Source: a virus. Taken from it: 54,285 nucleotides of DNA. Numbering within the stretch: position 1 is the stretch's first letter; every line of letters starts with the position of its first letter. The DNA lies in the IMG/VR virus record IMGVR_UViG_3300011431_000001, positions 1 to 54,285 of that record, one strand, 5' to 3'. A program made the position numbers and the translations under genes. Shown piece by piece: positions 21,241-43,797 of this stretch. The notes under the pieces are model-generated. The model saw only the letters and a list, made by a program, of their open reading frames with translations. It ran no database searches and was not told the origin of the DNA.

Positions 21241-21242
21241 GT

Positions 21243-24855: not shown

Positions 24856-25062
24856 TCAATTAATTATTTGTTCCCAATTCTTTTTTATAAAAGAAATATC
24901 AAGACCTGTTTTCATTGCTATGTATAATCTTGTAACAAAGGGCTTAGATTGAAAAACAGCCCTTGCTTTGTTTATTTGTATTTGCCTTGTTCTTTCTAAA
25001 TCTTCAGGCGTAACATTGCTTACTTTAACTTTTAGTTTCATTTTTCTTGTATAATGGGACAT
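24856..25062 (-). CDS. Hypothetical protein, 68 aa
   Basis: ORF track. Confidence 0.5.
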   Translation of the reverse strand: MSHYTRKMKLKVKVSNVTPEDLERTRQIQINKARAVFQSKPFVTRLYIAMKTGLDISFIKKNWEQIIN

Positions 25063-27270: not shown

Positions 27271-27651
27271 TTAGCAAAAAATAATCTCTCCATTTGTAAT
27301 AAAAAAATGAGCCTTGCATCCGATAGTTAATAAAACAGAACTACTGCCTGCAATCAGAGTTAAATCATTAAAATCATTTCCATTAATTTTCCATCTTCCA
27401 GGTATTGGCGAAGTTGTTTGAGGTACATTAGGGCACCAACAAACAACATAATGAGTTCCGATAACGCTGTTTTTATTGTTCTTATAACATAACGGGCATA
27501 CGAACCAAATTCCATCTGCTTCCTTTACACTATTAACAGTTTTAAAATTAGCATCGTCAATCCATTTTAAAAACTCAGGATTAAGTTCTATTAGCCTCAT
27601 ACAATATTGCCAGTAAGTTTTAAGTAGAAGAGGCATTTTCTTTTTTATCAA
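27271..27651 (-). CDS. Zinc-binding phage protein (DUF6527-like pattern); start ambiguous (27651, 27636 or 27600)
   Basis: WFVCPLC...H...GRWKINGNDFNDLTL...GCKAHFFITNGEIIFC. Confidence 0.55.
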   Translation of the reverse strand: MIKKKMPLLLKTYWQYCMRLIELNPEFLKWIDDANFKTVNSVKEADGIWFVCPLCYKNNKNSVIGTHYVVCWCPNVPQTTSPIPGRWKINGNDFNDLTLIAGSSSVLLTIGCKAHFFITNGEIIFC

Positions 27652-28069
27652 CTATTTCTAACCATATCTTTTCAGATTGCTGCACCTTATAAATTAAATC
27701 ACATAAGTCATTCATAGCAGCTTTGTCATTGATAAGTACATGATGTTTATCGTCATCTTTATAGCTGACAATTATACAACCAGCAGACGACAGTTCAGAT
27801 GTTCCATTATGGATACGTATTCCTTCGAAATCAGGGACATTAAAAACGCCAGTTAGTAGTCGATTAAATCTATTACTCCAAGTAACCAAGACAGGATAGC
27901 GACCATAAGGGATTGCTGTTTTAGCATATACCTTTAATCCAGCGTTCCATTCTCCCGGCTTCGCTCTTATAACATCTTCGATTGTATTACAAAACCATTT
28001 ATCGTTCACATACAAATTTCCTTCAGTTGAATGAGGATTATGAATTTTTCTTTCTAAAATTAATTTCAT
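27620..28069 (-). CDS. DUF5675-like protein; candidate cell-wall hydrolase (H...GC motif reminiscent of the YkuD fold)
   Basis: STEGNLYVNDKWFCNTIED...TAIPYGRYPV...VPDFEGIRIHNGTSELSSAGCIIV. Confidence 0.45.
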   Translation of the reverse strand: MKLILERKIHNPHSTEGNLYVNDKWFCNTIEDVIRAKPGEWNAGLKVYAKTAIPYGRYPVLVTWSNRFNRLLTGVFNVPDFEGIRIHNGTSELSSAGCIIVSYKDDDKHHVLINDKAAMNDLCDLIYKVQQSEKIWLEIVDKKENASST

Positions 28070-28425
28070 AAAAAATAAAGTAAAATTAAATTTATCAATA
28101 GTCCATATTGTAATAAAAAGCCGGTAATGCCTAATTTCCTCATTTGTTTATCAATCCATGAAGTTGAGCCAATGTAAAACCAGTTTTGGCCTATCATGAT
28201 GTTGAAAAGGCCATTAAACAGCGTCATGTAAAGCAACCCTTCAACCGCAGCCCCTAAAACGTGATCATGCGGTAGAAAGACTACCGAAGGAATGAGGCCA
28301 GCAATACGCAACAAAAAACCTCTGACATGATTGATTTTCTCTCGCTTTAAATATCTTCTTAGATCAGTCAAAAGATCAACGCCAAGAATAGCTAAAAATA
28401 TGATTGCTGACAATATCATAACCAT
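28066..28425 (-). CDS. Multi-pass membrane protein, 119 aa
   Basis: Several hydrophobic segments (ILSAIIFLAILGV, LLRIAGLIPSVVFL, GFLLQYGLLINLILLYF). Confidence 0.6.
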   Translation of the reverse strand: MVMILSAIIFLAILGVDLLTDLRRYLKREKINHVRGFLLRIAGLIPSVVFLPHDHVLGAAVEGLLYMTLFNGLFNIMIGQNWFYIGSTSWIDKQMRKLGITGFLLQYGLLINLILLYFL

Positions 28426-28757
28426 ATAAATATTAATCCAAGTATACCAATAGCGAAACCAGCATAATTAGGCCAAACACTGCCGGCTGGAAGCAAGACG
28501 GTTCCAATAAATCTTTGCCATAAGCCTGATAAATAAAATACAAATATTAATAGAAAGGCAATGCCAATACCATTAATAAAGCTAGTAGGATGAAGGGCGT
28601 CCCATAGTGTGACATTAGAAAATTTATCTGTGCCACTTCCGGAGCCCTTTATCACGTAGCCAAATAAAATGAATACAATGACTATAATACCTAAGAATAT
28701 TCTTACACCTGTAGCTAATAGATGTTCATCTTTTGGAAGTTTTTTGTCGTCTGACAT
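28416..28757 (-). CDS. Membrane protein, 113 aa (holin candidate)
   Basis: About three TM segments; adjacent to the candidate hydrolase. Confidence 0.5.
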   Translation of the reverse strand: MSDDKKLPKDEHLLATGVRIFLGIIVIVFILFGYVIKGSGSGTDKFSNVTLWDALHPTSFINGIGIAFLLIFVFYLSGLWQRFIGTVLLPAGSVWPNYAGFAIGILGLIFIWL

Positions 28758-28761
28758 AAAA

Positions 28762-29379
28762 TTATTTTTTAAAGGTTATTAAAAATTTTCGTGATCCAAA
28801 TATATAAAGTCGTTTATCATTACCATATAATGCTCCGGCTTCCCAAATCCCGTTATGTTTATTTTTGAGAAGGCCAGAGAAGCCTAAGTAAACATTCTGC
28901 TTTGTATCAGTCATGCCATTCACTCCGAAATAAATCTGGTTTCGTTTAGATTCGGGCTTTATTATCGTGGTTGTAATCGTAGGGATATTGAGGTCTGTTA
29001 TTAATCTTCTGCCGGCAATCCTATTTTGAGTAACCGTATCATTGATAATCACTTTCCCGTACTGGACTTTTTGGGTATCAGAATAAATTGCTTTTGAAAA
29101 ATAATCTCTGAGAATTACTGCCGTATCAACATCTTTCAAGTTCTCGATGTATAATGTGTCTAATTTATAAACCGGTCGCTCTACTTGAACAACTTTTATC
29201 AAAGATGGTTTGTAAAAAGTATCTCGTTTTTGTTCTGTCCATAACGTATCATGGGTAACAATTACTTCTGACTCTTTTACTTTTTTTCTATTACAACTTC
29301 TTCCGCATCGAAAGGAAAAGATAATAATGATCGCAATAATGATCAGCCAGAATAAATAACCAATCAGTCTTATTTTCAT
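28762..29379 (-). CDS. N-terminally membrane-anchored protein (205 aa from the ATG at 29379)
   Basis: MKIRLIGYLFWLIIIAIIIIFSF anchor followed by a beta-rich domain. Confidence 0.55.
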   Translation of the reverse strand: MKIRLIGYLFWLIIIAIIIIFSFRCGRSCNRKKVKESEVIVTHDTLWTEQKRDTFYKPSLIKVVQVERPVYKLDTLYIENLKDVDTAVILRDYFSKAIYSDTQKVQYGKVIINDTVTQNRIAGRRLITDLNIPTITTTIIKPESKRNQIYFGVNGMTDTKQNVYLGFSGLLKNKHNGIWEAGALYGNDKRLYIFGSRKFLITFKK

Positions 29380-29458
29380 ATGATTTAGTTTAATAAAGCC
29401 ATTACGAGTGTAATTATTAAAAGAATAGCGCAAACTTTTAAAGCATCATGATCCTGTT

Positions 29459-29821
29459 TCATTTTTTTTGTTTTAAAGCATCCTCAAAACCGTTTTTGTA
29501 ATTCATCCAATCATTAAATTTTCTTACCTCTCTACCAACATTATCTACCTGATCTCTTTGAATGGAATATTGACGAGTAACCTTTTCATCTAAATCCTTT
29601 ATTTGTTCTCTTAATGTTTGGACTTCTTTTTCATCTGCCTTCTGCTTTACCTCATTCCATGTATCTTTTGTCCTCATCCAAAAAACAACGAGTGCAATAA
29701 TACCGGCTCCAATATAGATAGCAGTCTGTGGATTAAGAAAATTCCCAACCCATGTTCTACTACTTTTAATTGATATGTTACTGTTTTCCTCCAACGTTCT
29801 CAGCTTTTTCAATATTTTCAA
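29459..29821 (-). CDS. TM plus coiled-coil protein, 120 aa
   Basis: AIYIGAGIIALVVFW followed by a K/E-rich helix. Confidence 0.55.
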   Translation of the reverse strand: MKILKKLRTLEENSNISIKSSRTWVGNFLNPQTAIYIGAGIIALVVFWMRTKDTWNEVKQKADEKEVQTLREQIKDLDEKVTRQYSIQRDQVDNVGREVRKFNDWMNYKNGFEDALKQKK

Positions 29822-30059
29822 TCTTGGTTATCGTCGGTGGTTTAGGCGTTGACTTAAATACCTCTTTCCAACTTTCAATAGCAATACCGACATAAAATAC
29901 AAGTATCATATAGAAAAGCTGATCCTCAAATGTTTCTCTAAGCACATACCCACCATAGAGATTAGAAAAGAAATAAATTACCCAAAGAATCATAAGCACA
30001 AGAGTGAAAAGTCTTTTGGAAGACTGTTCCTGGTTTGGCCCATTTAAGAATTTGAACAT
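29778..30059 (-). CDS. Membrane protein, 93 aa
   Basis: LFTLVLMILWVIYFF and LFYMILVFYVGIAI. Confidence 0.55.
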   Translation of the reverse strand: MFKFLNGPNQEQSSKRLFTLVLMILWVIYFFSNLYGGYVLRETFEDQLFYMILVFYVGIAIESWKEVFKSTPKPPTITKIENIEKAENVGGKQ

Positions 30060-30064
30060 AATTT

Positions 30065-30355
30065 TTATTTTTTTGATTGTAAAAATTCATCTTGTCTTTG
30101 TCTTAATTCATTTACCTGAAGTTGAATACCTTCCTGTTCTTTTCTATAAATACTATTTTGCAATTCCAAACTTTTAAATTTTTCTTCATAATATCGTTCT
30201 TTACCTTCTCCTTTAGTTTGACCATCTCTATAATCACTTTTTAATTCAGCGTAAAACCATACTGCTGTTGCAACAAGTATTATTGTGTGGCCAAATAACC
30301 ACATTAGAAATTTAACAGTAATTCCTTTCAATTCGCTTTTTTCTAAATCGGTCAT
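30065..30355 (-). CDS. TM plus coiled-coil protein, 96 aa
   Basis: FLMWLFGHTIILVATAVWFY followed by a coiled coil. Confidence 0.55.
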   Translation of the reverse strand: MTDLEKSELKGITVKFLMWLFGHTIILVATAVWFYAELKSDYRDGQTKGEGKERYYEEKFKSLELQNSIYRKEQEGIQLQVNELRQRQDEFLQSKK

Positions 30356-32490
30356 AATTGTATGGCTTGAGAAATTTTAGTACCATATTTTATTCTATAC
30401 CATTTTTTTGGTTTAATTAATATTTGATATGAAGTTGCTGAAACGGTAATAATAGTAGAAAAGCCTTCATTTCTTTTTTGTGATCGTTGGATCTCTACCG
30501 CACCTGCCGGAGTTACTTGCCAACTAAGCATTTTATTTATTCCGGAAAAAGAATTGATCACAGTATCAGTAGGCGGTGGAGGCGGTGGAGGTATAAAAGT
30601 AGTATCTCCTGTTGTTGCCCAAACAGTGTCGCTCCATTGAGCATAATTCCCGGCTGGATCAAATGCCCTGACATGAAACCAATAAGTATCATTATGAAGT
30701 AACCCTCCGGCTGGATAATCACTTGCAACCCATGTTCCACCAAAGCCCCAGTTTCCGGCCACATTTAATCCTTCAATTTGATACGCAGATACTTTTACGT
30801 TATCAGTCGCGTCTGTCCAATCGTAATCTATTTCGGTCGGTTTTATCGCTGTAATAGTAACAACAACTTTAGTCGGAGCAATTACATCCTTTGTCCCTGT
30901 CGTCGTTACTTTAATTTCTGTCCCTGGGCTAACCAATCCTTGTTTATTTATTTGATAAACAGTAAAACTATATTCTACTCCGGGAGACAATCCACCTTCA
31001 TTTAGAAATCTGTAAAAAGTTGAAATTTGCTGATATTCAATGCCACTTTGTTTGATTATTATTCCATAGAAATATATTCCACTCTCTGGATCTGAAACAG
31101 AATCCCATGCAATGCTAATAAAATTATCGGTTATATTCGTAGTTCTTAAATTAGCTACTGCCGGAGGTGGTGTAAAATCAACAAATGGTCGTGGTAAAAT
31201 TGGTCGTGGTGTATACACATCATTATTACCCTGTGTAAAAGTAGAAACATCAAGAGTGCCACCAGTTAAACATTTACCTTGAAAGGCCTGTTCTTTTCTT
31301 GTACTATTTAATATAGCCGCTTTTATTTCTGAATAATGTGCCGATTGATGACCGGAAGCATAAAGAGCACAAGCACCTGCAACATGTGGCGTCGCCATAC
31401 TCGTCCCTGAAAAGGCAACATAAATAGGATTCGCACTCCCGTCATACCCTGTGCTCCAAACATTCACACCAGGAGCAAATAAATGAACAGATAACCCATA
31501 GTTTGAAAAACTGGCTTTATTACCACTGATATCTTTTGCACCCACTGAAATAACGTTATCTATTTTATGATTGGCAGGGTAAAAATTTATGATATCATTA
31601 TTTGAATTATTATTCCCCGCCGCACAAACAAATAAAATATCAGCTAGTCTTGCCCTATTTATCGCATCACTAAGGGCAACAGTTGAATCTCCCTGATAAC
31701 CCCATGAATTACTCATAGCGACGAAATGAAAACCACTATCTACCTTCAACATTATAGAGTAATCAATCGCTTCAATGGCCGCTGATAAAGGACCACTTCC
31801 CTCTAAGAATTTTTCTTGAACAATAGTAACCTGCGGACATACACCAATTACGCCAATTGAATTATTTCCAGCTCCGCCAATTGTTCCTGCAGTATGAGTT
31901 CCATGATGGTCAGCAAAATCAAAAATAGTGCTATCATGATGAAGGAAATCATAGCTATGTGGAACATCTAGATTGGGCCCTAAATCGGGATGATAATAAG
32001 CTGCACCCTCATCAATATCAGCTACATATATTTTTTGGCTTCCTATGTTTGTCGCCCATGCAGTAGCGGCACCAATATCTTTCATGCCCCAAAGATCATT
32101 TGTTAGGTAAAGTGAATCATTGGGATAATCTTGTTTTGTTACTATCCAATTTGGAGAAACTGATTTAACGTTGAGGTTCTTTTTTAAAATATCAATAGCC
32201 GCCTGAACATCAACTACATTTAATATATCAACTGGAGTGCTATGAAAATTTCTCATAGCCTTTGTAAAGATTGTTCTTTTTACTGAGGCTCCCATCAAAC
32301 GCATTGATTTCTCATCTTTAGTATTCCACTGTACTAATACCTCATTATCCACCCACCTTTTGCCATCATATTGATTTTTAAATTGAGTAGTTTTAGGAAC
32401 TGTTTTTTCTAATGCTTTTTGATCTTTAATTTGTTTACTACAAGAAAGTAGAATTACAAAAACAAATAGGGTACAGATTATTTTTTTCAT
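30352..32490 (-). CDS. Lipoprotein subtilisin-like serine protease (S8) with C-terminal FN3-like repeats
   Basis: Lipobox ILLSCSK; triad contexts VADIDEGA, HGTHTAGTIGG, GTSMATPHVAG; PPPPPPP linker. Confidence 0.9.
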   Translation of the reverse strand: MKKIICTLFVFVILLSCSKQIKDQKALEKTVPKTTQFKNQYDGKRWVDNEVLVQWNTKDEKSMRLMGASVKRTIFTKAMRNFHSTPVDILNVVDVQAAIDILKKNLNVKSVSPNWIVTKQDYPNDSLYLTNDLWGMKDIGAATAWATNIGSQKIYVADIDEGAAYYHPDLGPNLDVPHSYDFLHHDSTIFDFADHHGTHTAGTIGGAGNNSIGVIGVCPQVTIVQEKFLEGSGPLSAAIEAIDYSIMLKVDSGFHFVAMSNSWGYQGDSTVALSDAINRARLADILFVCAAGNNNSNNDIINFYPANHKIDNVISVGAKDISGNKASFSNYGLSVHLFAPGVNVWSTGYDGSANPIYVAFSGTSMATPHVAGACALYASGHQSAHYSEIKAAILNSTRKEQAFQGKCLTGGTLDVSTFTQGNNDVYTPRPILPRPFVDFTPPPAVANLRTTNITDNFISIAWDSVSDPESGIYFYGIIIKQSGIEYQQISTFYRFLNEGGLSPGVEYSFTVYQINKQGLVSPGTEIKVTTTGTKDVIAPTKVVVTITAIKPTEIDYDWTDATDNVKVSAYQIEGLNVAGNWGFGGTWVASDYPAGGLLHNDTYWFHVRAFDPAGNYAQWSDTVWATTGDTTFIPPPPPPPTDTVINSFSGINKMLSWQVTPAGAVEIQRSQKRNEGFSTIITVSATSYQILIKPKKWYRIKYGTKISQAIQL

Positions 32491-32549
32491 TTTAATTGTT
32501 TTCGCTGTTATTAATTTTTTTTTATTTCATTTCTATATTTTTGAACATA

Positions 32550-32732
32550 TCAGTAGCAGCTTCGGAAACGGAGTTTCGCAGTCTTCCCTGTTTCCTGTAA
32601 TTCTGCAACCTGAATACAAGGTTGCGGTCGTGCCTTAGTAATGACATTTTGTAATTTATTGATATTATCTTTTTCTTTTTTACACCCAAATAATAAGATG
32701 GCTGTGATAAATAATAAAAATAATTGTTTCAT
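32550..32732 (-). CDS. Small lipoprotein, 60 aa
   Basis: MKQLFLLFITAILLFGCKKE. Confidence 0.6.
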   Translation of the reverse strand: MKQLFLLFITAILLFGCKKEKDNINKLQNVITKARPQPCIQVAELQETGKTAKLRFRSCY

Positions 32733-32736
32733 GCTG

Positions 32737-32913
32737 TTAATTTTTTAATTCCATTTGAATGCTTTTGAGCATATTAATAAGATATAAATAAGCCGATTCA
32801 GTATTTACAACATGCTCATAATTTGCATCTGCCATTGATTGAGTCACTTTTATTGGAGTGTTTTTTATCGCCTCTGCCTTAGCGATAATTTCATCAAGAA
32901 AAGTAGTAGTCAT
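32737..32913 (-). CDS. Small hypothetical protein, 58 aa
   Basis: Hand translation MTTTFLDEIIAKAEAIKNTPIKVTQSMADANYEHVVNTESAYLYLINMLKSIQMELKN. Confidence 0.45.
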   Translation of the reverse strand: MTTTFLDEIIAKAEAIKNTPIKVTQSMADANYEHVVNTESAYLYLINMLKSIQMELKN

Positions 32914-33029
32914 GTCTGCCTCCTTAATATTTTTTGCATGAAGTCTTCTAAATCTTCAAATCTCATTTTCCAATAATCAGGTTTTCTTTTATAATACCAA
33001 TAAACAATCGTTGCGAAAATATTTCTCAT
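32910..33029 (-). CDS. Small hypothetical protein, 39 aa
   Basis: MRNIFATIVYWYYKRKPDYWKMRFEDLEDFMQKILRRQT; ATGA overlap with the next ORF. Confidence 0.35.
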   Translation of the reverse strand: MRNIFATIVYWYYKRKPDYWKMRFEDLEDFMQKILRRQT

Positions 33030-33034
33030 GGCAC

Positions 33035-33331
33035 TTATTTAGGCTTTTGTGTTCTTAACCATTCTGCATATTTTTCATTAATGAAAGTGTAATACTGCCG
33101 GGCAAAATCATCCAATGCTTTTTTAGTTAGTACATCATAATTTTTCGTTGTGTACCAATTAGAGAACTCTGCCGCTGTTAATTTATTCCCGACTTCACCA
33201 AAGAATTTCTCTTGTCTTGTCCGCTCTATTGCAGAGCTATCAAAAACTGCTTTCCTTGTTGGAACGTTGATGTTTTGTGCGGAGCAATAACCGGCGATTG
33301 AGATAAATAAAATAATAATTAGTTTTTTCAT
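33035..33331 (-). CDS. Secreted small protein, 98 aa
   Basis: Signal peptide MKKLIIILFISIAGYCSA/QN. Confidence 0.6.
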   Translation of the reverse strand: MKKLIIILFISIAGYCSAQNINVPTRKAVFDSSAIERTRQEKFFGEVGNKLTAAEFSNWYTTKNYDVLTKKALDDFARQYYTFINEKYAEWLRTQKPK

Positions 33332-33347
33332 ATACCGTATTTAAAGT

Positions 33348-34619
33348 TTAAAAAACATGAAAAAATCCTCCTTTATTAAAAACTGCTGGTACGGCCGGTG
33401 CAAATTCTGCTTCTATCATTATACCTCTCCAGTATTGATCTGGATTAGCATCACTTGCATACCCAAAACGAGCTCGTATATTATTGAAATTACCAGCTCC
33501 ACTTACTACTGTCCATGCACCTCCTGTGGGTGCAACAGCATAAAATTTACTTGCATATCTATCTGTTATTACACCCGCAACTACACCTCTAGCTATTATA
33601 GTACTTTCAGTACCATTATCATTAAGTTTGGTTGTAAAATCACCAGTTGATGTTGTCGCTTCTCTATCTGCAGTTATTACTTCAACCCCTCTTGGTGCAA
33701 CCGTTGGAGTTGAAATTCCAGGAGCTGCCCCAAATATTTCTTCGGCGTATAATGTAGTTCCGTTTGATTGTTGGTTTACTAATCTTGTATTATTAGTTGC
33801 ACCGCCAAGCAAGGGAACAGCATTGACCCAATTAAATACATCTGTTGCGCCGGCTACATTGCCTTCACCTGTAGGTGCAGCAATCGTTCCTTTAACTATT
33901 GTTGTAGTTGTTGCGGTATGAGTACCATCTGAAGTTGGTATAAAATGATTGACATAACCTGCTCCGATTGGATAATCTGCCAAAGTTTGAGAAACTAAAA
34001 CATCATCTATAAAATAATCTGCTGTTGGAATAGCAGCATCGGTTCCAAAAACTATATTTGTTGAAGTTGAAGCTGCCAATGCTCTCGTGGCTTGACCACA
34101 TGCTGTGCCATCGACACTTACATCAATTGTCCATGGATTTGCACTTTGATCAAACTTAACATCAATTAAATACCAGACTCCTGTAGTAACGGTTACACCT
34201 GTCGCCCCTACTGATGTGCCTCCAACTATATGACCAGCATAAATTTTAGAATCAGACACTTTAAAAACTGCTCCGCCGATGGCCGTCACGGCTCCCACAC
34301 TCACAATTGGCAGATCAATACTTGGAAGTGTAGCAAATCTAATATATGCTCTTATTACATATATAGCTGATGAAGTTAAAGAAGCACTTGTTGACCAGCC
34401 TGTACTCACTCCCGCTGGATTAATTCTTAAAGATTGCGCTCCATTGTTAACGGTTGTAGTACTATATGTTACAACAGTTACAGATCCAAATCTAAAATGC
34501 TGCCCGATATCTGTAACACTACTAACACCGCATTCAAAACCACAAGTAAAAACTGGTATTAGAGTTGCATTACAAAAAATGCAAACAAAAAGACTGAGTA
34601 TTAAAAATATTTGTTTCAT
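33348..34619 (-). CDS. Signal-peptide protein with a jelly-roll/LamG-like N-domain (423 aa from the ATG at 34619)
   Basis: MKQIFLILSLFVCIFC...; GVWYLIDVKFD...WTIDVSVDG. Confidence 0.6.
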   Translation of the reverse strand: MKQIFLILSLFVCIFCNATLIPVFTCGFECGVSSVTDIGQHFRFGSVTVVTYSTTTVNNGAQSLRINPAGVSTGWSTSASLTSSAIYVIRAYIRFATLPSIDLPIVSVGAVTAIGGAVFKVSDSKIYAGHIVGGTSVGATGVTVTTGVWYLIDVKFDQSANPWTIDVSVDGTACGQATRALAASTSTNIVFGTDAAIPTADYFIDDVLVSQTLADYPIGAGYVNHFIPTSDGTHTATTTTIVKGTIAAPTGEGNVAGATDVFNWVNAVPLLGGATNNTRLVNQQSNGTTLYAEEIFGAAPGISTPTVAPRGVEVITADREATTSTGDFTTKLNDNGTESTIIARGVVAGVITDRYASKFYAVAPTGGAWTVVSGAGNFNNIRARFGYASDANPDQYWRGIMIEAEFAPAVPAVFNKGGFFHVF

Positions 34620-34620
34620 A

Positions 34621-37600
34621 TTAATATCCCTTTGAATAAGCCACAACCATCCATCTTGTACCGTTGTAAACACATCCTATTAAATCAGTTTTTCCTGAAG
34701 CTGTTACTGTTAATCCTGTTATATCAGAACCAAAAATAAAATCACCTGTTGTCGCTGTAGGTAAAGTCAATGTACTTGTAGTGCCGCTTGCAGTATACTC
34801 TATAATCATTTTTTGCCCATTTGTAGGATTAGTTGTTGTTCCTGCCGTACGAGTGGCACTTGTAGTTGTCCAAGTAAATACATTACCAAGTGAAGCGTCT
34901 ATTACCGCACCTGCACCATCTGATACTGTCACTACTTTTTCAAGTAAAGCATTTCCTATATTAACTCCTTTTGTACCTTTACCTGTTATAGTAATAGGTA
35001 CGTTTGTTTCTCCTGATGCTGTTATAGTAGGCCCGTTTCCTGTTGCGCCATTTGCAATTGTAAATTCATTTACTGCAGAGCCAGTTGCTGTAATTTTAAA
35101 TACCTCATTCCCGTTTGCATCACTTATGTCAGTGGTTATTTTAGGAGAAGTCATAGATTGAATACCAGTGAAAGTTTGCGCTGCGTCAGTCCTTGCTATA
35201 GTTGCGGAAGTTGTTGGAAACGTCATCGTAGTGGCGTCCGTTCCTTCAAGTGTAATAGATTTATTAAATGTTAACGTCTTTGCGGCAACTCCTGTTAATG
35301 TGTACGTCCCGGTTGTAAATGTATTGCCGTTAATAGTTGTGGCCGTAGCTGCACCCAAAGTCGGTGTAGTGAAAGAAGGTGAGGTAGTTAAGGCAAGTTG
35401 TGTCCCGCTTCCACTGGTTGTCATTTCACCAACTACACCGGCATTATCATATAAAACTCTTCCGCTTGTTCCACCTGTTATTACAGATGAGCCTATAGTT
35501 ATTCCACTTCCACCACCAGGAGTAGCCATCGTCAAAATATTTCCGCTTGCATCAAAACCTAAAACACCAACCGAAGTGCCAGAGAATGAACCTGTTGTTG
35601 TGTATAATGGTAACTTTAATTGGCCAGTTGATATTATTCTCATCTTTTCTGAACCGCCACCGCTTGAAGTTGCCCCGGCGGCCATTAGTCCAATTACAAA
35701 ATCAAAATCCTCTGATGCACTTGTAACATCGGTTGATATTGATCGAATTGTTGCCCCGTATTTAATGCCCGCTGTAGTTTCTGTTCCGAAGTTGATTCCT
35801 GTACCTATGCCATTTGCAGGCGTTCCGGATGTAGTATGAGTTAATTCTAAAGGACTTGAAAAAACATTATTTGAAGCATCATCACTTTGAATAGTCGTAA
35901 ATGCGTTAAATGTATTATTACCAGTAAATGAATTATTATTAGCAAGAAATACATCGCCGCCACCTTGTTGATCCAATTGATAACGTGTGCCTGCATTAAC
36001 AGCCGTAAAATAAAGATGTGTACCGTTATATTCAATTGCACCTGCTTCAGTAGTTGTAAGATTAGTTCCACTTGTAAGTTTTAATGGTGCTGTCCCTGCT
36101 GTTGCTGTTCCTGCTTTTAATTCTATATAGGCACTGCCATTAACACCTGTATTACTTAAATTTCCAAGATAATCTATTCTCCATCTTTCTGCAGGCCCAG
36201 AATTATTAGCTGTAGAAAAAATTAATGCTCCTTTATAAGCACCATTACTTATATCAGTAAGTGTCCCGGCTATTCGTGATGCTACCGTTTCACCACCCGT
36301 TGTTCTGTTTAATGAGAATGCAAACCCCATTGTTAGACTTGTACTTGCTGCGTCTGAATTGAAAAAATTAAGACCATTGCCATTATTACCTATCCCACCA
36401 CCTTGATATTTAACAGGAGCATTTGCTCCCAATTCCCATACCACAGGTTTATTTGGCCACATACTTACAGTTGACGCAGCAGATTCTAATGTTATATACT
36501 GATTAGTTGTAAGAGCAAATCTTCCATTGCCACCAACATCTCCGGTTATTGAACCCATGAAAGTGCCATTACTATGTAATACTCTCATTGCACCTTTATG
36601 GGTACTACTGCCAATTTGAAAATCACCGCTATTTAAAAATCTTCCACCTTCAACATTCCCATTATTTCCTGTTTGAAAAATAATATCTGCTCCTGTTGTA
36701 CCTATACCTGTTGTTGATTTTAATGTAAGAGGAGAAGTAGTCCCTGTTCCCCCTATTAATATTGGATTTGTTAGTGAAACACCAATTATTCCTGCGCCAT
36801 CAATATTAAAATTTGATGAAACTTGTTGTGAGGTTTGATTTTTTATATAGGAAGTACCAATATCGGGTATATCGCCAGCTACTAAAATATTCCATCCTGG
36901 TGCAGCACTTATAGTTGCATTACCTGTTTGTGTTAAAAATTTCTTTGTTGTAGTTATATTACCTGCCAGTCTTGCAGCAGCAGGAGTTGCATCTTCATAT
37001 ATAATATCTCCTAATGTTGTCATTGGGTTTGAGAATCCTGAACCACTTGGAGTTGCCCATGTTCCATCTCCACGCCAAAATGTAGACGAACTTGCACTTG
37101 TACCTGAATTTAAATTTGTAACAGGTAGATTACCTGTTACTGCATTTGATGAAGCTAAATTAATTGCTCCAAATGCCAATGCAGTTCCTGAACGCCTCAA
37201 TACCTGATTATCTGTGCCAGCAACTATGTCAGCTAAATTAGCTGTTGCATTTCCGGTTACTCCCAAAATACTTAATGCTGTTCCTTGCTGAATCTTAGCA
37301 TAAGTAATTGTATTGGTTGTAATGTCACCATTTACTATTGCTCCCCATGAAGGATTACCGGCAGCATTACCATGAAGCACAGTTACAGTTGTTCCCTGAT
37401 TTACAAAATCGGCAGAAGCAAGTGCGGGTGAACTATATGAAGGCGCAGCAGTACTTGCAGTAAAGTTTCCAAAGAAAGTATGAGCTGCGGCCGTACTTAA
37501 AGAAAATGTGAGTGCAGGCGTTGTTGTTGCGGTTGCTACAGAGGTTGTAAATAATGGCGATAAGGTTCCAGCGCTGAATGATGTTACAGTTCCATTTCCA

Positions 37601-39279
37601 CCGCCTATTGCAGTTAAAAAAGATGACGCACTTAAAGCTGTTACAGTATTGTCTGCATTTATTCTCGGAAATGTTATAGCAGATGGATTTGTTAAGGTAA
37701 AGAAGTTTATACCAACTGTAGTTCCGCCTAATGCTGTTCTTGCAGAAGATGGTATAACGCTTGCCCATGCCGATGCAACACCCACCATGAAGTTATTAGT
37801 CGTAGCTGTAAGTCCTGCAATGGTAGTAAGATCTGCATCCAACGGCTGATATGCGGCATTACCTGCCGATATTGTAAGCCATTTAGTTGCATCAATAGTT
37901 ATTAAATTACTGGCAAGATCAAAGTCAGCAGAAGCGAAAGAATTAAATTGAAGATCAACCCCAACTTTTGTAGAATAATTTGCAAGACCACCGCCAAGGT
38001 TTGATGCGGTATTTGCTTCACCACCACCTCCTCCTCCACCGCCCACGCTTCTTGCATAGCCTTTTGTTGCAAGTGTATCAGCATTATTGTTTACTCTTAC
38101 AATACCGCCTGTTTGAATATTCATGAATGTTTCCTTAGTCCCACCATTCAATCCAATTATAGATGCCTGTGATGTTACTGAAGCTAATGTTGCGTTTGAT
38201 AAAAATGCTTGAAATCTTATAGCTGTATCGCCGCCAGGGTTACTAGAAATGTAAAAATCAAGACTTTCGCCTATTCCATTTCCAGGTGTTCCTGATGTAG
38301 TTCTTATTAGTTGCAATGTAGAAGAAATAGTATTTGTAGATGAAGGAGTAAGAGAGAAATATCCTGCTCTTTCTCCCGTTCCAGACGCAGTAAAAATGTC
38401 AGCTAATTTACCCGATAATTGTAGCGGTATTCCGTTGCTGCTTAAAAATATATTCTGCCCGCCTGTTGTTCCAATTATTTCCAACCTGTTTGATCCCGTT
38501 GAAATAGTATCCGTTTTCGTTAATATACTTCCTCCAATTTGAGTATTGAACACCTGTTGAAGTGTTGGAGTTGAACCGCCGCTTCCAGGCCAATAGGAAA
38601 AATTCTTTATATTTCCACTTGCATCAATTGCAGTAGGTTTATAAGTTGTCGTATCTGAAACAGCCGTTCCAAGTCCAGGTAATTTAACTCCGGCATCAAA
38701 AATCACATTACCTTTTACATAAAGTTTTGTACTGGGGCCACCAACAGAGATATTGGGTATATTAATCCCAAGTTTTATGTTAGTTGAATCAAAAAGAAAT
38801 TTAGCGTTACTCCTGATATGATTATTCCCGCCTGAGAATAAAACTCTTGTCTGCGGTTGTCCAGTGCTATCCAATGGGACTGAAAAAATGGTTGTATCAC
38901 CTTTACTCAAACCAGTAAACAATATCGTCGTATCAACTCGATAGGTCGAATCATTAACACGAATCAATCCATAGCTTCCAATATTGCCAAGCTGTGATAT
39001 GCCCGATCCTCCCGTTGTTTTAAGCCCATCCCACCTATATCCTGACCACTGCCAAAATCTTTGATTTTTCCAGGCAATAGCGCCGGAATCTGAAACACGA
39101 AGCTTGAAAGTATCGCGTGGCAGCCTGGCGGAGCTATCAATGGCAAAGTTTTTATATCGACTACCATACGTATTGACGGGCAAAAGAGTCTTAGTCGTGT
39201 CTACCTGCGCACCCGCTTGAGCGCTCGCCTTACTAGAATAAATCGCAATTAAGAAAAATAGAAATAATATTTGTTTCAT
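34621..39279 (-). CDS. Giant fibre/adhesin-like protein, 1552 aa, with an N-terminal signal peptide
   Basis: MKQILFLFFLIAIYSSKASA/QA; G/T/S/A/N-rich beta-repeat sequence; located in the tail-fibre region. Confidence 0.75.
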   Translation of the reverse strand: MKQILFLFFLIAIYSSKASAQAGAQVDTTKTLLPVNTYGSRYKNFAIDSSARLPRDTFKLRVSDSGAIAWKNQRFWQWSGYRWDGLKTTGGSGISQLGNIGSYGLIRVNDSTYRVDTTILFTGLSKGDTTIFSVPLDSTGQPQTRVLFSGGNNHIRSNAKFLFDSTNIKLGINIPNISVGGPSTKLYVKGNVIFDAGVKLPGLGTAVSDTTTYKPTAIDASGNIKNFSYWPGSGGSTPTLQQVFNTQIGGSILTKTDTISTGSNRLEIIGTTGGQNIFLSSNGIPLQLSGKLADIFTASGTGERAGYFSLTPSSTNTISSTLQLIRTTSGTPGNGIGESLDFYISSNPGGDTAIRFQAFLSNATLASVTSQASIIGLNGGTKETFMNIQTGGIVRVNNNADTLATKGYARSVGGGGGGGGEANTASNLGGGLANYSTKVGVDLQFNSFASADFDLASNLITIDATKWLTISAGNAAYQPLDADLTTIAGLTATTNNFMVGVASAWASVIPSSARTALGGTTVGINFFTLTNPSAITFPRINADNTVTALSASSFLTAIGGGNGTVTSFSAGTLSPLFTTSVATATTTPALTFSLSTAAAHTFFGNFTASTAAPSYSSPALASADFVNQGTTVTVLHGNAAGNPSWGAIVNGDITTNTITYAKIQQGTALSILGVTGNATANLADIVAGTDNQVLRRSGTALAFGAINLASSNAVTGNLPVTNLNSGTSASSSTFWRGDGTWATPSGSGFSNPMTTLGDIIYEDATPAAARLAGNITTTKKFLTQTGNATISAAPGWNILVAGDIPDIGTSYIKNQTSQQVSSNFNIDGAGIIGVSLTNPILIGGTGTTSPLTLKSTTGIGTTGADIIFQTGNNGNVEGGRFLNSGDFQIGSSTHKGAMRVLHSNGTFMGSITGDVGGNGRFALTTNQYITLESAASTVSMWPNKPVVWELGANAPVKYQGGGIGNNGNGLNFFNSDAASTSLTMGFAFSLNRTTGGETVASRIAGTLTDISNGAYKGALIFSTANNSGPAERWRIDYLGNLSNTGVNGSAYIELKAGTATAGTAPLKLTSGTNLTTTEAGAIEYNGTHLYFTAVNAGTRYQLDQQGGGDVFLANNNSFTGNNTFNAFTTIQSDDASNNVFSSPLELTHTTSGTPANGIGTGINFGTETTAGIKYGATIRSISTDVTSASEDFDFVIGLMAAGATSSGGGSEKMRIISTGQLKLPLYTTTGSFSGTSVGVLGFDASGNILTMATPGGGSGITIGSSVITGGTSGRVLYDNAGVVGEMTTSGSGTQLALTTSPSFTTPTLGAATATTINGNTFTTGTYTLTGVAAKTLTFNKSITLEGTDATTMTFPTTSATIARTDAAQTFTGIQSMTSPKITTDISDANGNEVFKITATGSAVNEFTIANGATGNGPTITASGETNVPITITGKGTKGVNIGNALLEKVVTVSDGAGAVIDASLGNVFTWTTTSATRTAGTTTNPTNGQKMIIEYTASGTTSTLTLPTATTGDFIFGSDITGLTVTASGKTDLIGCVYNGTRWMVVAYSKGY

Positions 39280-39315: not shown

Positions 39316-40698
39316 TTAAATATGCCTCAGATATATCACGCCAAAGTTTTCAGTCAGATTTTCATCACCACCAGATGCTTCAATCAAGGCAGCAGAGCTA
39401 TTATATCCGTCACTCAGATTTGATTTTCTAAGAGCCACTACCGGATCGGCCGTATTACTTCCTCCTATCTTAATTCTATGTGTGTGTGTCTTCACCTGCC
39501 CATCCTGCCAACCGCCTGGATAATCAATAGGCCTGGTCGTGTCCGAGCCATAGGAATCAAAATCCTTCAACGCCCTTTCATACAATCGTTGAGTATTTGG
39601 AAGCCTGAATTGTTTTAATGTGCTATGAATTACGAATTGGCCGAGTTTATTACCAGGGTGAACATATCCGCCGCTCACTACTGTGTCGTCGGTTATATAA
39701 TGAGTATTTGGTAATACATTTCTGATAAACCAATAAATAGCGGGATATTCGTCGCCATCAAGCAACCGCCCATCTTCAGGTAAATAATTCAAATGGTTTA
39801 AATAAGTAGCCGCCATCCTTTCGCCAACTCTTGCGCCATCATAATCGTTTATTATTTCCCAATAACTGCCTTCTTTACGCAGGTAAAGACTCCCGCCACG
39901 GCTGGCCCATAACTCAGAAAGTAATGTAGTACCAGAAAAGCCATTATAGAAAACTTTATCAGTACCGTTTGTTTTTATTCTGCTTTGCGCCTGAACGCCA
40001 TCTCTCTTGTGTTCGAGATAAACCATATCTCCCGCGGCAAGGGATGAAAGAGGGGGCAATGTGACTTCCTGCTTTGTCCCCGTACAATCAAGGCAAAACC
40101 TTTTTCCTTTGTCGAGTGCAGATATTGAATAAGAAGCAGCGGTGACCGTAATCGTCGCAATGAATAAACTGCTGGCTGAAGTACTTACCGATCCTCCGGC
40201 ATTATATTTAATTTCTACAATAAATTTTTCCCCATCGGACATTTCCGCTCCTATTTCTGTAATAGCCCCTATTGCATCATTAAAAGTCCATTCTGTAGTT
40301 GGTTCAAGATATCGGAATCCCTCTTTAAAAATCCCTGAGATGTTTTTATTAATCAAATAGGGGTCGGTTAGAATTGTCCTGGTGCCATCAAGTGTGGCCC
40401 CACCCGATAAGGCGCCAATTAAATAAAATCTTCTTTCATATAAAAATTCTCCTGTTTGAGCATTTACGAAAGCTTCACTAACTAAGGTACCGAGTGCGAC
40501 ATTTGTAGGGGCATCCCTAAACCGGATAAAATAATCATCAGGATCAAGTCCGGGTATTATCAGAATGTAATTTGTAACCGGGACATCAATATACTGGACA
40601 AACACTTCCGTAGAAGGACTGCTCACCTTAGCTGCGCTTACCCGAAGCCAATCGGTATATGCGACAGTCCCAATAACGAGTTTTAATGTTACGCTCAT
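39316..40698 (-). CDS. Tail fibre protein with a tail-collar-like segment
   Basis: GRLLDGDEYPAIYWFI...FRLPNTQRLYERAL; position downstream of the tail tip genes. Confidence 0.5.
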   Translation of the reverse strand: MSVTLKLVIGTVAYTDWLRVSAAKVSSPSTEVFVQYIDVPVTNYILIIPGLDPDDYFIRFRDAPTNVALGTLVSEAFVNAQTGEFLYERRFYLIGALSGGATLDGTRTILTDPYLINKNISGIFKEGFRYLEPTTEWTFNDAIGAITEIGAEMSDGEKFIVEIKYNAGGSVSTSASSLFIATITVTAASYSISALDKGKRFCLDCTGTKQEVTLPPLSSLAAGDMVYLEHKRDGVQAQSRIKTNGTDKVFYNGFSGTTLLSELWASRGGSLYLRKEGSYWEIINDYDGARVGERMAATYLNHLNYLPEDGRLLDGDEYPAIYWFIRNVLPNTHYITDDTVVSGGYVHPGNKLGQFVIHSTLKQFRLPNTQRLYERALKDFDSYGSDTTRPIDYPGGWQDGQVKTHTHRIKIGGSNTADPVVALRKSNLSDGYNSSAALIEASGGDENLTENFGVIYLRHI

Positions 40699-40775
40699 AT
40701 TGCTTCTTTATATTGCCATTTAAATCCGTAAGCTGTTTTCATTTCTCCTTTCCAGATTTCCATAATTATTAATTT

Positions 40776-41735
40776 TTACTCTACGTCAAGCAATGGCACT
40801 ACATTTCCGCTGCCCTGATTTGATGTATCACCCCATACTTTTGCTTCAACTACAATTCCATAAACAAGCTTCTTAGTAGTGTCGGTTTCCTGCATTCTGA
40901 TTGCACTGCGTCTATTTATTCCTTCCTCAACTATTAACTTCACAAAACGCTTTGGATATTTTTGATATGTAAAATCTTCAATCGAGAAATCGCCATCACC
41001 GGCGGCAAATGATTTATTGTCAATTAATACGTTATTGCATCCCCAAATCCTGTTTAATAAATCAATTTCATCATCGGGAAGACCGAAATCATCACCAAAA
41101 AAAACATCAAACTTTCTGAATGTTTTGCTGCTTAAAAGAGTAGTATTATATTGCTGATCCTTATACTTTTCCTCGTCACGGCCCGGATTCATAAAACCTA
41201 TATGGCCAAGAATTCTTTTCTGAAATTTTATCCCTGTTTCGAAGATTATATCCTCATGGAATCTGGAATGCCAGTATTCGAGCATGAGCGTTGGGAAATC
41301 AAAAGCCACGGATGATATATACATTATTGAAGACTCGTAAATTTTCTGTGTGGGGCCAGAAGTGCCCGCAGTAATTCTAAGCTTGTAACAACCAGTGGAA
41401 ATGCTTGCCAAGCTCATGCTGATTTCAAAAGAAAAAGTATTTGGATAGTATTTATTTGGAAGGCCAATAAGAGCCGGAAGCGTTATAACAGCAACATTGT
41501 TCGAATTAATTAATTCCACTATGATCGGATCAAAAGTTGATTCGAACTGTAAATTTATTATATCAGTCGTCTGCCAAAGTTGAGTGTAATCTGTTGGGTC
41601 ATGCCACGCGTAAAGTCTTTCAGCAAAAGGATAATCATCAAATTGCCGCGTAAAATACTTAGGCAAATTGCTCCTGGTTACGTCGAAAAAACGTACTGGA
41701 TTAATGAATGGTATGCCAATAAAATTATCCGCCAT
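40776..41735 (-). CDS. Tail tip/baseplate-region protein, 319 aa
   Basis: Position only. Confidence 0.45.
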   Translation of the reverse strand: MADNFIGIPFINPVRFFDVTRSNLPKYFTRQFDDYPFAERLYAWHDPTDYTQLWQTTDIINLQFESTFDPIIVELINSNNVAVITLPALIGLPNKYYPNTFSFEISMSLASISTGCYKLRITAGTSGPTQKIYESSIMYISSVAFDFPTLMLEYWHSRFHEDIIFETGIKFQKRILGHIGFMNPGRDEEKYKDQQYNTTLLSSKTFRKFDVFFGDDFGLPDDEIDLLNRIWGCNNVLIDNKSFAAGDGDFSIEDFTYQKYPKRFVKLIVEEGINRRSAIRMQETDTTKKLVYGIVVEAKVWGDTSNQGSGNVVPLLDVE

Positions 41736-43797
41736 AATAATCTATAAGTGGACTCAAATCAGTATCAGCTGTAGGCCATAGCTGATAAGTCTGCGCCTTG
41801 TTTCTTTTCGGGTTTATGCTGTTTTTAATGCTTATGCCTTTATAAAGATTCCCATCAAATAAAAAAGAAAAAGTTTTCAAAGGATTGGAATCAAGATCAT
41901 CTAGTAAATCGTCAGGAACGATGACATCAATACTTATAAGTACGGGATTAAAAAATTTATTATCAAGACTTCCTACCGGTTCATCTGCATTTTCTACTAT
42001 TACATCGACGCCATTTATATAGCTCATATTTTGATTACGGTCAGCTGAAATGAATTTTAAAATTTTATTATCGGCCAGGTATAACGATGAATGCAGAAAG
42101 TCGCTGCTCCTGCGCAGGCAACGTTTTGGAGAAAAGATTACATTGAAAATCGTTTCTTTTTCATCAACTCCTATAAGAAAAGTATTCAGTGAACGATCAA
42201 GTTCATAATGATCGGGAATATCACCGCTGCTAGCAATTAATGTTTTTGCTATATGCAATACATAAATATCATTATCACTTTTATTATCAGTTGTATCTCT
42301 GCTGGCTTGATCAATTCTTATGTTTTCAATGTCGTAACATGAGGCTTTTATTTGGCTGATTTTTTCATACTTCCGTGGTACTTTTGTCGTTCCAAGTGAA
42401 TAAATGAATGTTGTATTGAATTCATTTTTACCATTTACAAAGCCATCTTCATTTTTCACGTCCGGGTAGCCGATTGCCAATTCATTAAATGGAAGATCTT
42501 TGTCAAATGAAATTTTAAGCTTACTGGCTTCTCCGAGGTCAATAACATTTAACTGATCAATTAAATTATTCTTTCTATCAAATAGAACTTTTTTATTCAA
42601 TTCACGGATTCCCACCTCGTCATAAGTATTCCAGAATCCAAAAAATAAAGACCAGGAAATTTTCAGCTTTGCGTCCGGAAGCCCTCTTATCGCATCCCCT
42701 GAAGTAAAGACTTTATCAATATTTTGAAGTTCTCCGAAATAGGGACAATCTTCGGCTGAATATTCTCCATCTGTCATTTTATCTATTAATTCAGCAAAGA
42801 CATCTTGACAACGATTAGCCTTAATGTAGGAAGTGCTAAATCTCGATGCAAAATTTATAGAAAATGTCGATTCCTTATAATGAACTTTTTCTAATACCGT
42901 TCCAGTATAAAATCCAACAAGAAAAAATTTTTCATTTGCGAACGCATCAAAAGTTTCATTAACAGAAATATCATATAAAATACCTCCCGTTGGAGGAGGG
43001 GAAACCAAAACAACGAGATCAATATCTCTATTTGTATCAGTATGTAGCCTTACGCCAAATGGTATACCAACATCAAGGATGAATTTAAAATTACCTATAA
43101 ATGTCAACCCGGTAATATCTTGTGTAACAGCAAACAAATATTCTGTGGATGTTGTCCAATCTCCCGGTGAATCTTGACCAAAAACTGAGAAAGATGCAAA
43201 TCCGGCTGCATTCCCTTCTTTGTTTATAAATGAGGCACCAATCAGATGCTCTGTTACTTGTGTTTGTTCAGTAAGTAAAAAATTATGTTTTTCTTTTAAT
43301 AAAATACCATCTTCTTTTATGTAGAGTCCGTTCAATTCAAGCTCATAAACCGTGTTTTCATTGGCTTTAAGATGCTTGGCGAGTCCTTCCTCAGAATTAG
43401 CTGCAGTAACATAAGCCCCCACATGCTCAAATGTGCTAAGATCAACCTCGCTTCTGAAAATCTGTTTATACCAATAGCCATATTCCACGCCTGGAGTATA
43501 AACAAGTTGAAGGGAGCAGATAATCAGGTAAACCGATTCTTCGATTCCCTTTTTGTAAAAAATATGCTTTATGATTTTGGCGCCGTCTTCTACATACTTG
43601 AAAGGCGCTGAAACAGTTCTATCAATTGCCCAATATTTTTTATTACGCACATTTTCAACGGTCGTATCCATCCAGCCATCGGGAGAAAAAAGCAAGGGAT
43701 AAGGGTTGTTGTTTATGACCACATCACCATTAGAATCAAGGCCCCAAAACCTGCGGCTCTTATCTTGTAAAAAGAAGATATAGTCATGGTGAGTCAT
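41725..43797 (-). CDS. Distal tail / tail-tip protein, 690 aa
   Basis: Immediately downstream of the tape measure gene (ATGA-type junction). Confidence 0.5.
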   Translation of the reverse strand: MTHHDYIFFLQDKSRRFWGLDSNGDVVINNNPYPLLFSPDGWMDTTVENVRNKKYWAIDRTVSAPFKYVEDGAKIIKHIFYKKGIEESVYLIICSLQLVYTPGVEYGYWYKQIFRSEVDLSTFEHVGAYVTAANSEEGLAKHLKANENTVYELELNGLYIKEDGILLKEKHNFLLTEQTQVTEHLIGASFINKEGNAAGFASFSVFGQDSPGDWTTSTEYLFAVTQDITGLTFIGNFKFILDVGIPFGVRLHTDTNRDIDLVVLVSPPPTGGILYDISVNETFDAFANEKFFLVGFYTGTVLEKVHYKESTFSINFASRFSTSYIKANRCQDVFAELIDKMTDGEYSAEDCPYFGELQNIDKVFTSGDAIRGLPDAKLKISWSLFFGFWNTYDEVGIRELNKKVLFDRKNNLIDQLNVIDLGEASKLKISFDKDLPFNELAIGYPDVKNEDGFVNGKNEFNTTFIYSLGTTKVPRKYEKISQIKASCYDIENIRIDQASRDTTDNKSDNDIYVLHIAKTLIASSGDIPDHYELDRSLNTFLIGVDEKETIFNVIFSPKRCLRRSSDFLHSSLYLADNKILKFISADRNQNMSYINGVDVIVENADEPVGSLDNKFFNPVLISIDVIVPDDLLDDLDSNPLKTFSFLFDGNLYKGISIKNSINPKRNKAQTYQLWPTADTDLSPLIDYYGG

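Follow-up and report, generated by a model that had tools for sequence, protein, structure and literature searches.

The metagenomic virus genome IMGVR_UViG_3300011431_000001 of the IMG/VR collection, analysed over its full 54,285 nucleotides (nt; hereafter the window), carries at 30352-39279 on the minus strand a block of six tightly packed genes with tail genes on one side and lysis genes on the other. Five of the six begin with an export signal, three of the signal peptidase I (SPase I) type and two in the form of a lipobox. In the order of transcription they encode a fibre-like protein of 1552 amino acids (aa), a lectin-like protein of 423 aa, a small protein of 98 aa, a 58-aa open reading frame (ORF), a 60-aa lipoprotein and a 712-aa lipoprotein subtilase. 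The window is the nearly complete genome of a siphovirus-type phage of about 55 kilobases (kb) with a host in the Bacteroidota, probably of the Chitinophagaceae type. A sequence-only reading of this DNA had drawn attention to five consecutive genes with signal peptides or lipoboxes. All five are present on the minus strand with the N-termini described, but they are not strictly consecutive, as the 58-aa ORF (32737-32913), which has no signal, lies between the 98- and 60-aa genes.

Signals were scored in all 85 non-overlapping ORFs of the window by a charged n-region, a hydrophobic h-region and either a small-x-small cleavage site or a lipobox. The 1552-, 98-, 60- and 712-aa genes are flagged, and the 423-aa gene is flagged when it is read from its ATG, the longer ORF that starts with GTG being scored as 'none'. 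Elsewhere in the window its positives are the first of the holin-like membrane proteins (28066-28425) and a handful of short ORFs that are probably spurious; none of the head and tail genes, from that of the major capsid protein through that of the 460-aa protein preceding the block, scores as a signal. A charged n-region, an h-region of about 10-15 residues and a small-x-small site are found in the 1552-, 423- (ATG start) and 98-aa proteins, and the residue that follows the predicted site is Gln in the fibre (ASA/Q) and in the 98-aa protein (CSA/Q) and Thr in the 423-aa protein (CNA/T). At the level of pattern, a Cys 15-25 residues from the start and after an h-region is found in the 60-aa protein (LFG/C17) and in the subtilase (LLS/C17). 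The five genes all start with ATG, 1-59 nt from the stop codon upstream, and none has an alternative start within 30 codons. The possibility, foreseen in the sequence-only reading, that the true start codons lie downstream of the hydrophobic segments was rejected on these grounds. Intergenic gaps across the block are 1-121 nt, and a scan found no excess of sigma-70-like promoters or of terminators; promoters of the Bacteroidota type lie outside the models of that scan.

The fibre-like protein (34621-39279, minus strand) is a mosaic rich in Gly, Thr and Ser. Its N-terminus, MKQILFLFFLIAIYSSKASA/Q, comprises an SPase I signal at residues 1-20 (39220-39279), with the predicted cleavage shown by the slash. 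An AlphaFold2 model of residues 1-420, calculated from a 14-row alignment, has a mean predicted local distance difference test (pLDDT) value of 45.8, and only the signal helix (residues 2-18) is modelled with confidence. A domain of about 100 aa with the motif FWRGDGTW (residues 650-750, 37030-37332) occurs in at least 588 IMG/VR stretches, and 59 of the 77 proteins scored are classical fibres without a signal. Viral contigs that carry this domain differ widely in guanine plus cytosine (G+C) content. The C-terminal tip of 268 aa (residues 1285-1552, 34624-35427) is 85% identical to that of P0002, an otherwise different fibre. The sharing of a domain with known phage fibres and the exchange of a tip, taken as marks of such proteins, are both seen in the 1552-aa protein, which by its sequence qualifies as a typical receptor-binding mosaic with a swapped C-terminal tip. 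Searches of GenBank phages with tblastn matched the 100-aa domain only, and sequence searches of the PDB gave no match. Signal peptides are present in 38 of 62 fibre homologues, 36 of them with Gln at +1, and a subset of the homologues share a loosely conserved motif past the cleavage site. Eight consecutive Gly residues encoded at 38026-38049 separate the N-terminal third of the fibre from the remainder.

One nucleotide after the fibre stop codon begins the gene of the lectin-like protein (33348-34619, minus strand), whose N-terminus reads MKQIFLILSLFVCIFCNA/TL. Public gene callers place its start at GTG 34673, which yields 441 aa and an overlap with the fibre gene of 53 nt; ATG 34619 was preferred because the N-termini of homologues match it and because it lies directly after the fibre stop. 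The signal peptide occupies residues 1-18 (34566-34619) and is predicted to be cleaved at CNA/TL, right before the sequence PVFTCGFECG. The jelly-roll fold proposed from sequence was borne out by an AlphaFold2 model (pLDDT 84) with two beta-sandwich domains, at residues 23-211 (33987-34553) and 222-406 (33402-33956). The modelled domains resemble tandem CBM22 modules, the lectin domains of sialidases and the binding domains of botulinum toxin. Structural matches over the whole length are two-domain phage proteins, one of which is annotated as a virion structural protein. As modelled, the fold is a tandem beta-sandwich of the lectin or carbohydrate-binding-module type. The family has more than 360 matches of about 400 aa, 45-64% identical, which occur in virus-sized contigs and in structural modules. 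Its match in GenBank phages (tblastn) and, with the family profile, in the PDB was sought without result; the 460-aa protein likewise found no match in the PDB. Genomes of GTDB contain only two matches, both without a signal and both in metagenome-assembled genomes, one of the Verrucomicrobiia and one of the Saccharibacteria. In the family Cys26, Glu29, Cys30 and His41 are invariant, the N-terminal motif being CCGFECG (residues 24-30, 34530-34550), as are many Asp and His residues, and the region may be a metal site or an active site. Exported members mostly have Thr in place of the first Cys of this motif.

The three small genes follow. The 98-aa protein (33035-33331, minus strand; MKKLIIILFISIAGYCSA/Q) has its signal at residues 1-18 (33278-33331) with the predicted site CSA/Q. 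It is close to an orphan, with three small homologues among 1.8 billion representatives, and its gene position makes it a candidate helper of fibre assembly. Five bases upstream of the ATG of the 58-aa ORF (32737-32913, minus strand) stands a perfect AAGGAGG (32919-32925), which is unusual for a genome of the Bacteroidota type; no site of this kind occurs in the 25 bases upstream of the other five genes of the block. The 60-aa lipoprotein (32550-32732, minus strand) has its lipobox LFG/C at Cys17 (32682-32732) and a mature part of 44 aa. It weakly matches phrog_1119, the family of the Cor exclusion protein (E=2.5e-4, 22 bits, residues 1-58), largely through its signal peptide. Lipobox and size fit an outer-membrane spanin (o-spanin), but the 2.1-kb subtilase gene separates it from the genes of the transmembrane proteins. 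An o-spanin-like protein and an exclusion protein of the Cor/Llp type are candidate roles.

The subtilase gene (30352-32490, minus strand) closes the block. The lipobox LLS/C, with Cys17 (32440-32490), is followed by a prodomain-like region (residues 40-114, 32149-32373), which scores 19.9 bits with PF22148 against a cut-off of 21 and for which PF22148 is precomputed in most homologues. The S8 domain (residues 152-400, 31291-32037) was confirmed with Peptidase_S8 (PF00082; 151.9 bits, cut-off 21.8), and the catalytic triad reported earlier is intact (D160, H196, S364), with N261 as the likely oxyanion residue. Of the fibronectin-like repeats mentioned in the sequence-only reading, one FN3 domain reaches Pfam significance (residues 444-527, 30910-31161; fn3 38.4), and a second is only implied by a match to phrog_31 over residues 433-628; further beta-rich repeats extend to the C-terminus. 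Nineteen homologues on contigs of 3-55 kb share the full architecture of prodomain-like segment, S8 and FN3; 13 of them score as lipoproteins and three more as having another type of signal. The next tier of homologues consists of cellular S8 lipoproteins of about 460 aa. Scans of IMG/VR with the subtilase, as with the 690-aa tail protein, yielded no relatives, and PADLOC returned a generic subtilase match only.

Whether these N-termini are genuine export signals can be judged from their relatives. Most SPase I substrates of Bacteroidota expose a Gln at +1 that is later cyclised, a rule (Q-rule) specific to this phylum (PMC5837995). Relatives were picked by n-region and h-region alone, without use of cleavage-site information, and [ASGC]Q was found within 16 residues past the hydrophobic core in 60 of 64 of them, as against 7.4 +/- 2.5 in control windows of the same proteins. 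The 423-aa family provides a second line of evidence. Of 120 homologues, 108 start with M(A)TPVFCCGFECG and lack a signal, and in 11 of the 120, as in the window protein, a signal peptide stands exactly ahead of the family motif, so that the predicted cleavage restores the usual N-terminus of the family. Signal-bearing forms contain fewer Cys residues (4.6 vs 6.3, p=0.0016, relatedness uncontrolled) and mostly have TC for CC in the motif (p=0.0004, likewise uncontrolled for relatedness); the loss of Cys fits a move to an oxidising compartment. Neighbouring genes follow suit: signals are carried by 18 of 29 (62%) in five loci whose family member has one, and by 7 of 79 (9%) in 15 loci whose member lacks one (p=5e-8).

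An explanation in which the hydrophobic N-termini remain uncleaved, as membrane anchors or assembly elements, and in which these proteins are folded and added to the tail inside the cytoplasm or on the inner side of the membrane, would agree with classical tail assembly, which is cytoplasmic. It would also account for the detection of analogous proteins in Cellulophaga virions (see below) without a new assembly route and for a 423-aa family that works without a signal in most phages. Arguing against it is the conservation of small-x-small and Gln in 60 of 64 relatives, which would serve no purpose and would not persist without SPase I cleavage. The lipobox Cys residues at the canonical distance, the secretion-type, prodomain-like region of the subtilase, the regeneration of the family N-terminus in the 423-aa protein and the loss of Cys from signal-bearing forms point in the same direction, and we consider this explanation improbable. 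Real export is strongly supported by the Q-rule signature, the signals placed ahead of a family that otherwise lacks them and the covariation of neighbouring genes; judged from sequence, the five products are very probably exported. Of the three options offered in the sequence-only reading, the export presupposed by the first (envelope-directed products) and the third (exported components acquired by the virion) is well founded, and the second, non-cleaved assembly elements, is disfavoured.

As to destination, a scan with NCBIfam (E<=0.1) found no type IX sorting domain (TIGR04183, TIGR04131) in the five proteins. Bacteroidota lipoproteins destined for the cell surface carry K-(D/E)2 or Q-A-(D/E)2 just after the +1 Cys (PMC5080379). 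The sequences CKKEKD of the 60-aa protein and CSKQIKD of the subtilase do not contain two adjacent acidic residues after Lys. On both counts the products are predicted to end up in the periplasm or on the periplasmic side of a membrane. The O-glycosylation motif of Bacteroidota, D[ST][AILVMT], occurs seven times in the subtilase (2.8 expected, p~0.02) and four times in the 223-aa membrane protein encoded at 28762-29433 (0.5 expected, p~0.002); its count in the fibre is not significant, and it is absent from nine of ten signal-bearing members of the 423-aa family. The motif was considered too ambiguous and was not used as evidence.

The block occupies a defined place in the genome. Late genes all lie on the minus strand, with a tail module of the siphovirus type: the major capsid protein (50705-51817), followed by a tail protein, the tape measure of 1205 aa (43797-47414) and, after it, three tail-tip genes without signals that encode 690, 319 and 460 aa (39316-43797). 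These three mark the end of the cytoplasmic part of the tail module. At the other border a lysis-type cluster (27620-30355, minus strand) encodes six small membrane proteins in succession (28066-30355) and then a DUF5675 protein (27620-28069); neither a recognised endolysin domain nor an adjacent spanin pair was found in 27620-30355. At least two membrane proteins in this cluster, those of 96 and 120 aa, have, judged by eye, a transmembrane segment and a charged, heptad-like tail. The portal and large terminase genes are located at 1.1-4.2 kb of the window, with a radical-SAM protein encoded next to the terminase genes (4511-5338), and DnaB helicase and YqaJ recombinase genes in its middle. 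No close relative of the block was found among GenBank phages by megablast.

At least seven metagenomic loci from unrelated phages or prophages have the same layout, with runs of three to six signal-bearing genes that, where the loci are long enough, start after structural genes without signals and end at membrane proteins and an endolysin. In L104 a Q-rule protein of 2726 aa is followed by a member of the 423-aa family and two further signal-bearing genes, and L115, a Chitinophagaceae prophage, has six signal-bearing genes in succession, including a lipoprotein that is a tailspike-like pectate lyase. Signal-bearing runs also occur in L116/117 and L118. L119 and L120 have runs with fibre homologues, and L120 is syntenic to the tape measure, 690- and 319-aa genes of the window. 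L123 and L124 contain homologues of the subtilase; as in the window, the run of L124 closes with a lipoprotein S8+FN3 enzyme right before the lysis genes. Mixed arrangements exist alongside full runs: in the IMG/VR loci L090, L091, L098 and L106 a signal-less, often much longer member of the 423-aa family lies directly downstream of a single signal-peptide gene. L119 also carries two IS605-family OrfB/TnpB (Cas12f-like) genes (20858-22123 and 24866-24953) on a phage-sized contig. The remark in the sequence-only reading that any of its three options would be unusual is reasonable where phages at large are concerned; in a subset of Bacteroidota phages, however, the layout is recurrent rather than a one-off. 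The export-signal trait is lineage-specific.

These loci also bear on the proposal that the genes are host-derived cargo of a temperate phage, bacterial surface or adhesin genes that effect lysogenic conversion and are unrelated to the mechanics of infection. The catalytic domain of the subtilase shares about 40% identity with S8 lipoproteins of cellular origin, from Chitinophagaceae among others, some fibre homologues are found on very large bacterial contigs, and L115 and L124 carry integrases. Gene order is, however, kept across unrelated phages, always between tail and lysis genes, the fibre domains are those of phage fibres, and the 423-aa family belongs to virus-sized contigs and structural modules. 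Nor does the block have a promoter or terminator of its own in the sigma-70-like scan, and its G+C content (0.34-0.40) is close to that of the rest of the window (0.32-0.42 across the window). Cargo of this kind is the least probable of the explanations, and we give it very little weight.

Whether exported products of this kind become part of the particle is best approached through two cultured phages, Cellulophaga phi10:1 (KC821618) and phi18:3 (KC821620), the genomes of which were reportedly described by Holmfeldt in 2013. In phi10:1 gp091-gp095 all have textbook Q-rule signals, and their genes lie after the tape measure and before membrane proteins. The GenBank entries of gp091-094 bear the note 'structural protein; annotation based on experimental MS/MS proteomics analysis' (MS/MS, tandem mass spectrometry); gp095, the last of the run, has no such note. 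In phi18:3, a member of the Pachyviridae unrelated to phi10:1, gp085-087 have Q-rule signals and the same note, which brings the total to seven Q-rule proteins with an MS/MS structural note in two phage genera. Such proteins are identified by similarity in phi19:3. PHROGs labels the Cellulophaga proteins as virion structural protein, pectate lyase and tail fibre. In both phages, as in the window, the Q-rule run comes right after signal-less tail genes, combines fibre-like proteins with an envelope-degrading enzyme and belongs to a phage of Bacteroidota, and in phi10:1 the run is, as in the window, directly followed by small membrane proteins. They differ from the window in that the enzyme is a pectate lyase and not an S8 protease and in that the host is a marine member of the Flavobacteriaceae. 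The signal peptides of these runs are mentioned neither in the annotation nor in the literature found. For the third option of the sequence-only reading, a virion that acquires exported components, the seven proteins provide indirect support by analogy.

The Cellulophaga proteins weigh likewise against a model in which the five products are exported but never enter the virion and have the envelope of the infected or lysogenic cell as their sole site of action, where they mask or destroy receptors, bring about exclusion or remodelling, or help to break open the outer membrane at lysis, with the effect that superinfection is excluded and progeny are shielded from debris. This model takes the signals as genuine and is favoured by the location of the block between tail and lysis genes, where genes of the Cor, Llp and Lom type sit in other phages. 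It also accords with the weak match of the 60-aa protein to the Cor family phrog_1119 (E=2.5e-4), with the presence of signal-less fibre candidates upstream, with the resemblance of the subtilase to cellular lipoprotein peptidases and with the missing MS note of phi10:1 gp095. Against it stand the detection of seven analogous proteins in the virions of two phage genera and the composition of the 1552-aa fibre, since mosaics with exchanged tips are characteristic of the receptor-binding proteins of virions. The genes called upstream of the run in L119 include nothing else that is an obvious candidate for a fibre, and the runs of L115 and L118 directly follow genes of the head type. In addition, the block is tightly packed into the late operon, where the scan found no promoter or terminator signal belonging to the block alone, and the match to Cor derives mainly from the signal peptide. 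An action confined to the envelope is in our estimate rather unlikely for the block as a whole. The small lipoprotein and the protease may nevertheless function in exclusion, in the destruction of receptors or in remodelling.

In the model that we prefer, the block encodes an exported module for host recognition and for action on the envelope, which probably becomes attached to the tail outside the cytoplasm, a conclusion to which we assign an even balance of probability. The block would constitute the distal, envelope-facing end of the late operon, and its five signal-bearing products would cross the inner membrane via Sec late in infection. The fibre and the 423- and 98-aa proteins would be cut by SPase I, and the N-terminal Gln of the fibre and of the 98-aa protein would be cyclised by the host. 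The 60-aa protein and the subtilase would be lipidated at Cys17 and would probably stay on the periplasmic side, since they lack the surface-export motif; the subtilase would free itself of its putative prodomain. Receptor binding would fall to the fibre and the lectin-like protein, which most likely dock on the cytoplasmic tail once holin and endolysin have removed the barrier. By analogy with the Cellulophaga phages, their incorporation into virions seems to us neither more nor less probable than their absence. The 98-aa protein might assist the fibre in the same compartment, and the lipoprotein and the protease might act on the envelope in aiding lysis or in destroying or masking receptors, or the protease might be carried as an enzyme by the virion. 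The specific roles proposed for these three smaller proteins are put forward with low confidence.

Several points weigh against this model. No sequence similarity between the Cellulophaga proteins and those of the window is detected by blastp, and a common layout is what links them. Virion MS/MS may include envelope material that co-purifies or is carried over in vesicles. The signal scorer is a crude tool that works at the level of patterns, the 423-aa protein has no Gln at +1, and the Cys and covariation statistics contain no correction for phylogenetic relatedness. No run of this kind is present in Cellulophaga phi17:1 or Flavobacterium phage 11b; their fibres have no signals, and their sole signal feature is a lipoprotein beside the endolysin. 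The signal-less tail-tip candidates of 690, 319 and 460 aa might suffice for adsorption, in which case the exported set could be accessory. Finally, we know of no docking partner or mechanism for attachment after export.

The assembly of tailed phages is taught as a purely cytoplasmic process. The evidence from the window and the Cellulophaga phages suggests that some of the proteins for host recognition pass out of the cytoplasm before they are added to the particle. If this is true, tailed-phage assembly has an extracytoplasmic step that is testable in the cultured Cellulophaga phages. Fibres may then need periplasmic folding, disulfide chemistry or capping by pyroglutamate, which matters for the production of recombinant receptor-binding proteins and depolymerases, and annotation pipelines that read a signal peptide as evidence against a virion protein would mislabel host-range determinants in gut and environmental phages of Bacteroidota. 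Exported proteins could also block receptors and thereby tie host recognition to superinfection exclusion. Should the proteins be envelope-acting accessories only, the module would still represent a widespread and uncharacterised phage strategy for altering the host surface. As a tentative generalisation, to which we incline less than to the model for the window itself, a sizeable subset of Bacteroidota tailed phages might finish their adsorption apparatus outside the cytoplasm. In such a two-compartment route fibres, lectin-like proteins and enzymes would be exported via Sec, processed by host signal peptidases and glutaminyl cyclase, and docked after the breach made by holin and endolysin. 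A pathway of this kind has, as far as our survey goes, not been described for Caudoviricetes.

In the literature found, no paper connects tail fibres or virion proteins of Bacteroidota phages with signal peptides. The one remark that comes near concerns phages of Porphyromonas gingivalis, in which five scattered genes of unknown function obey the Q-rule, interpreted by the authors as adaptation to the Sec system of the host (PMC10367356). For these genes modification of the outer membrane was proposed, and the paper draws no connection to fibres, virions or a conserved module (PMC10367356). The subtilases of Bacillus phages, such as vB_BsuM-Goe3, have S8 domains 32-36% identical to that of the window enzyme, compared with about 40% for cellular S8 lipoproteins of Bacteroidota, and the combination of lipobox, prodomain-like region, S8 and FN3 is confined to the window enzyme and about 20 virus-sized metagenomic contigs.

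Small exported proteins or lipoproteins encoded beside tail-fibre or receptor-binding genes are familiar from Cor of T1, phi80 and N15, Llp of T5, and Lom and Bor of lambda. Those are single small genes, whereas in the window a 1552-aa fibre and a protease belong to the run. Rz1, an o-spanin, has the same size as the 60-aa lipoprotein, which also resembles spanins in its proximity to lysis genes and to transmembrane proteins with charged, heptad-like tails; it differs from them in that its mature part contains only two Pro residues, in that it has no homology to known spanins and in that its gene does not adjoin those of candidate inner-membrane spanins. The pIII and pVIII proteins of the Ff phages are virion proteins with Sec signal peptides that are assembled into the particle outside the cytoplasm. 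The Ff phages are non-lytic and tail-less and are extruded across the cell envelope, whereas the window encodes a head and a tape-measure tail of the cytoplasmic Caudoviricetes type.

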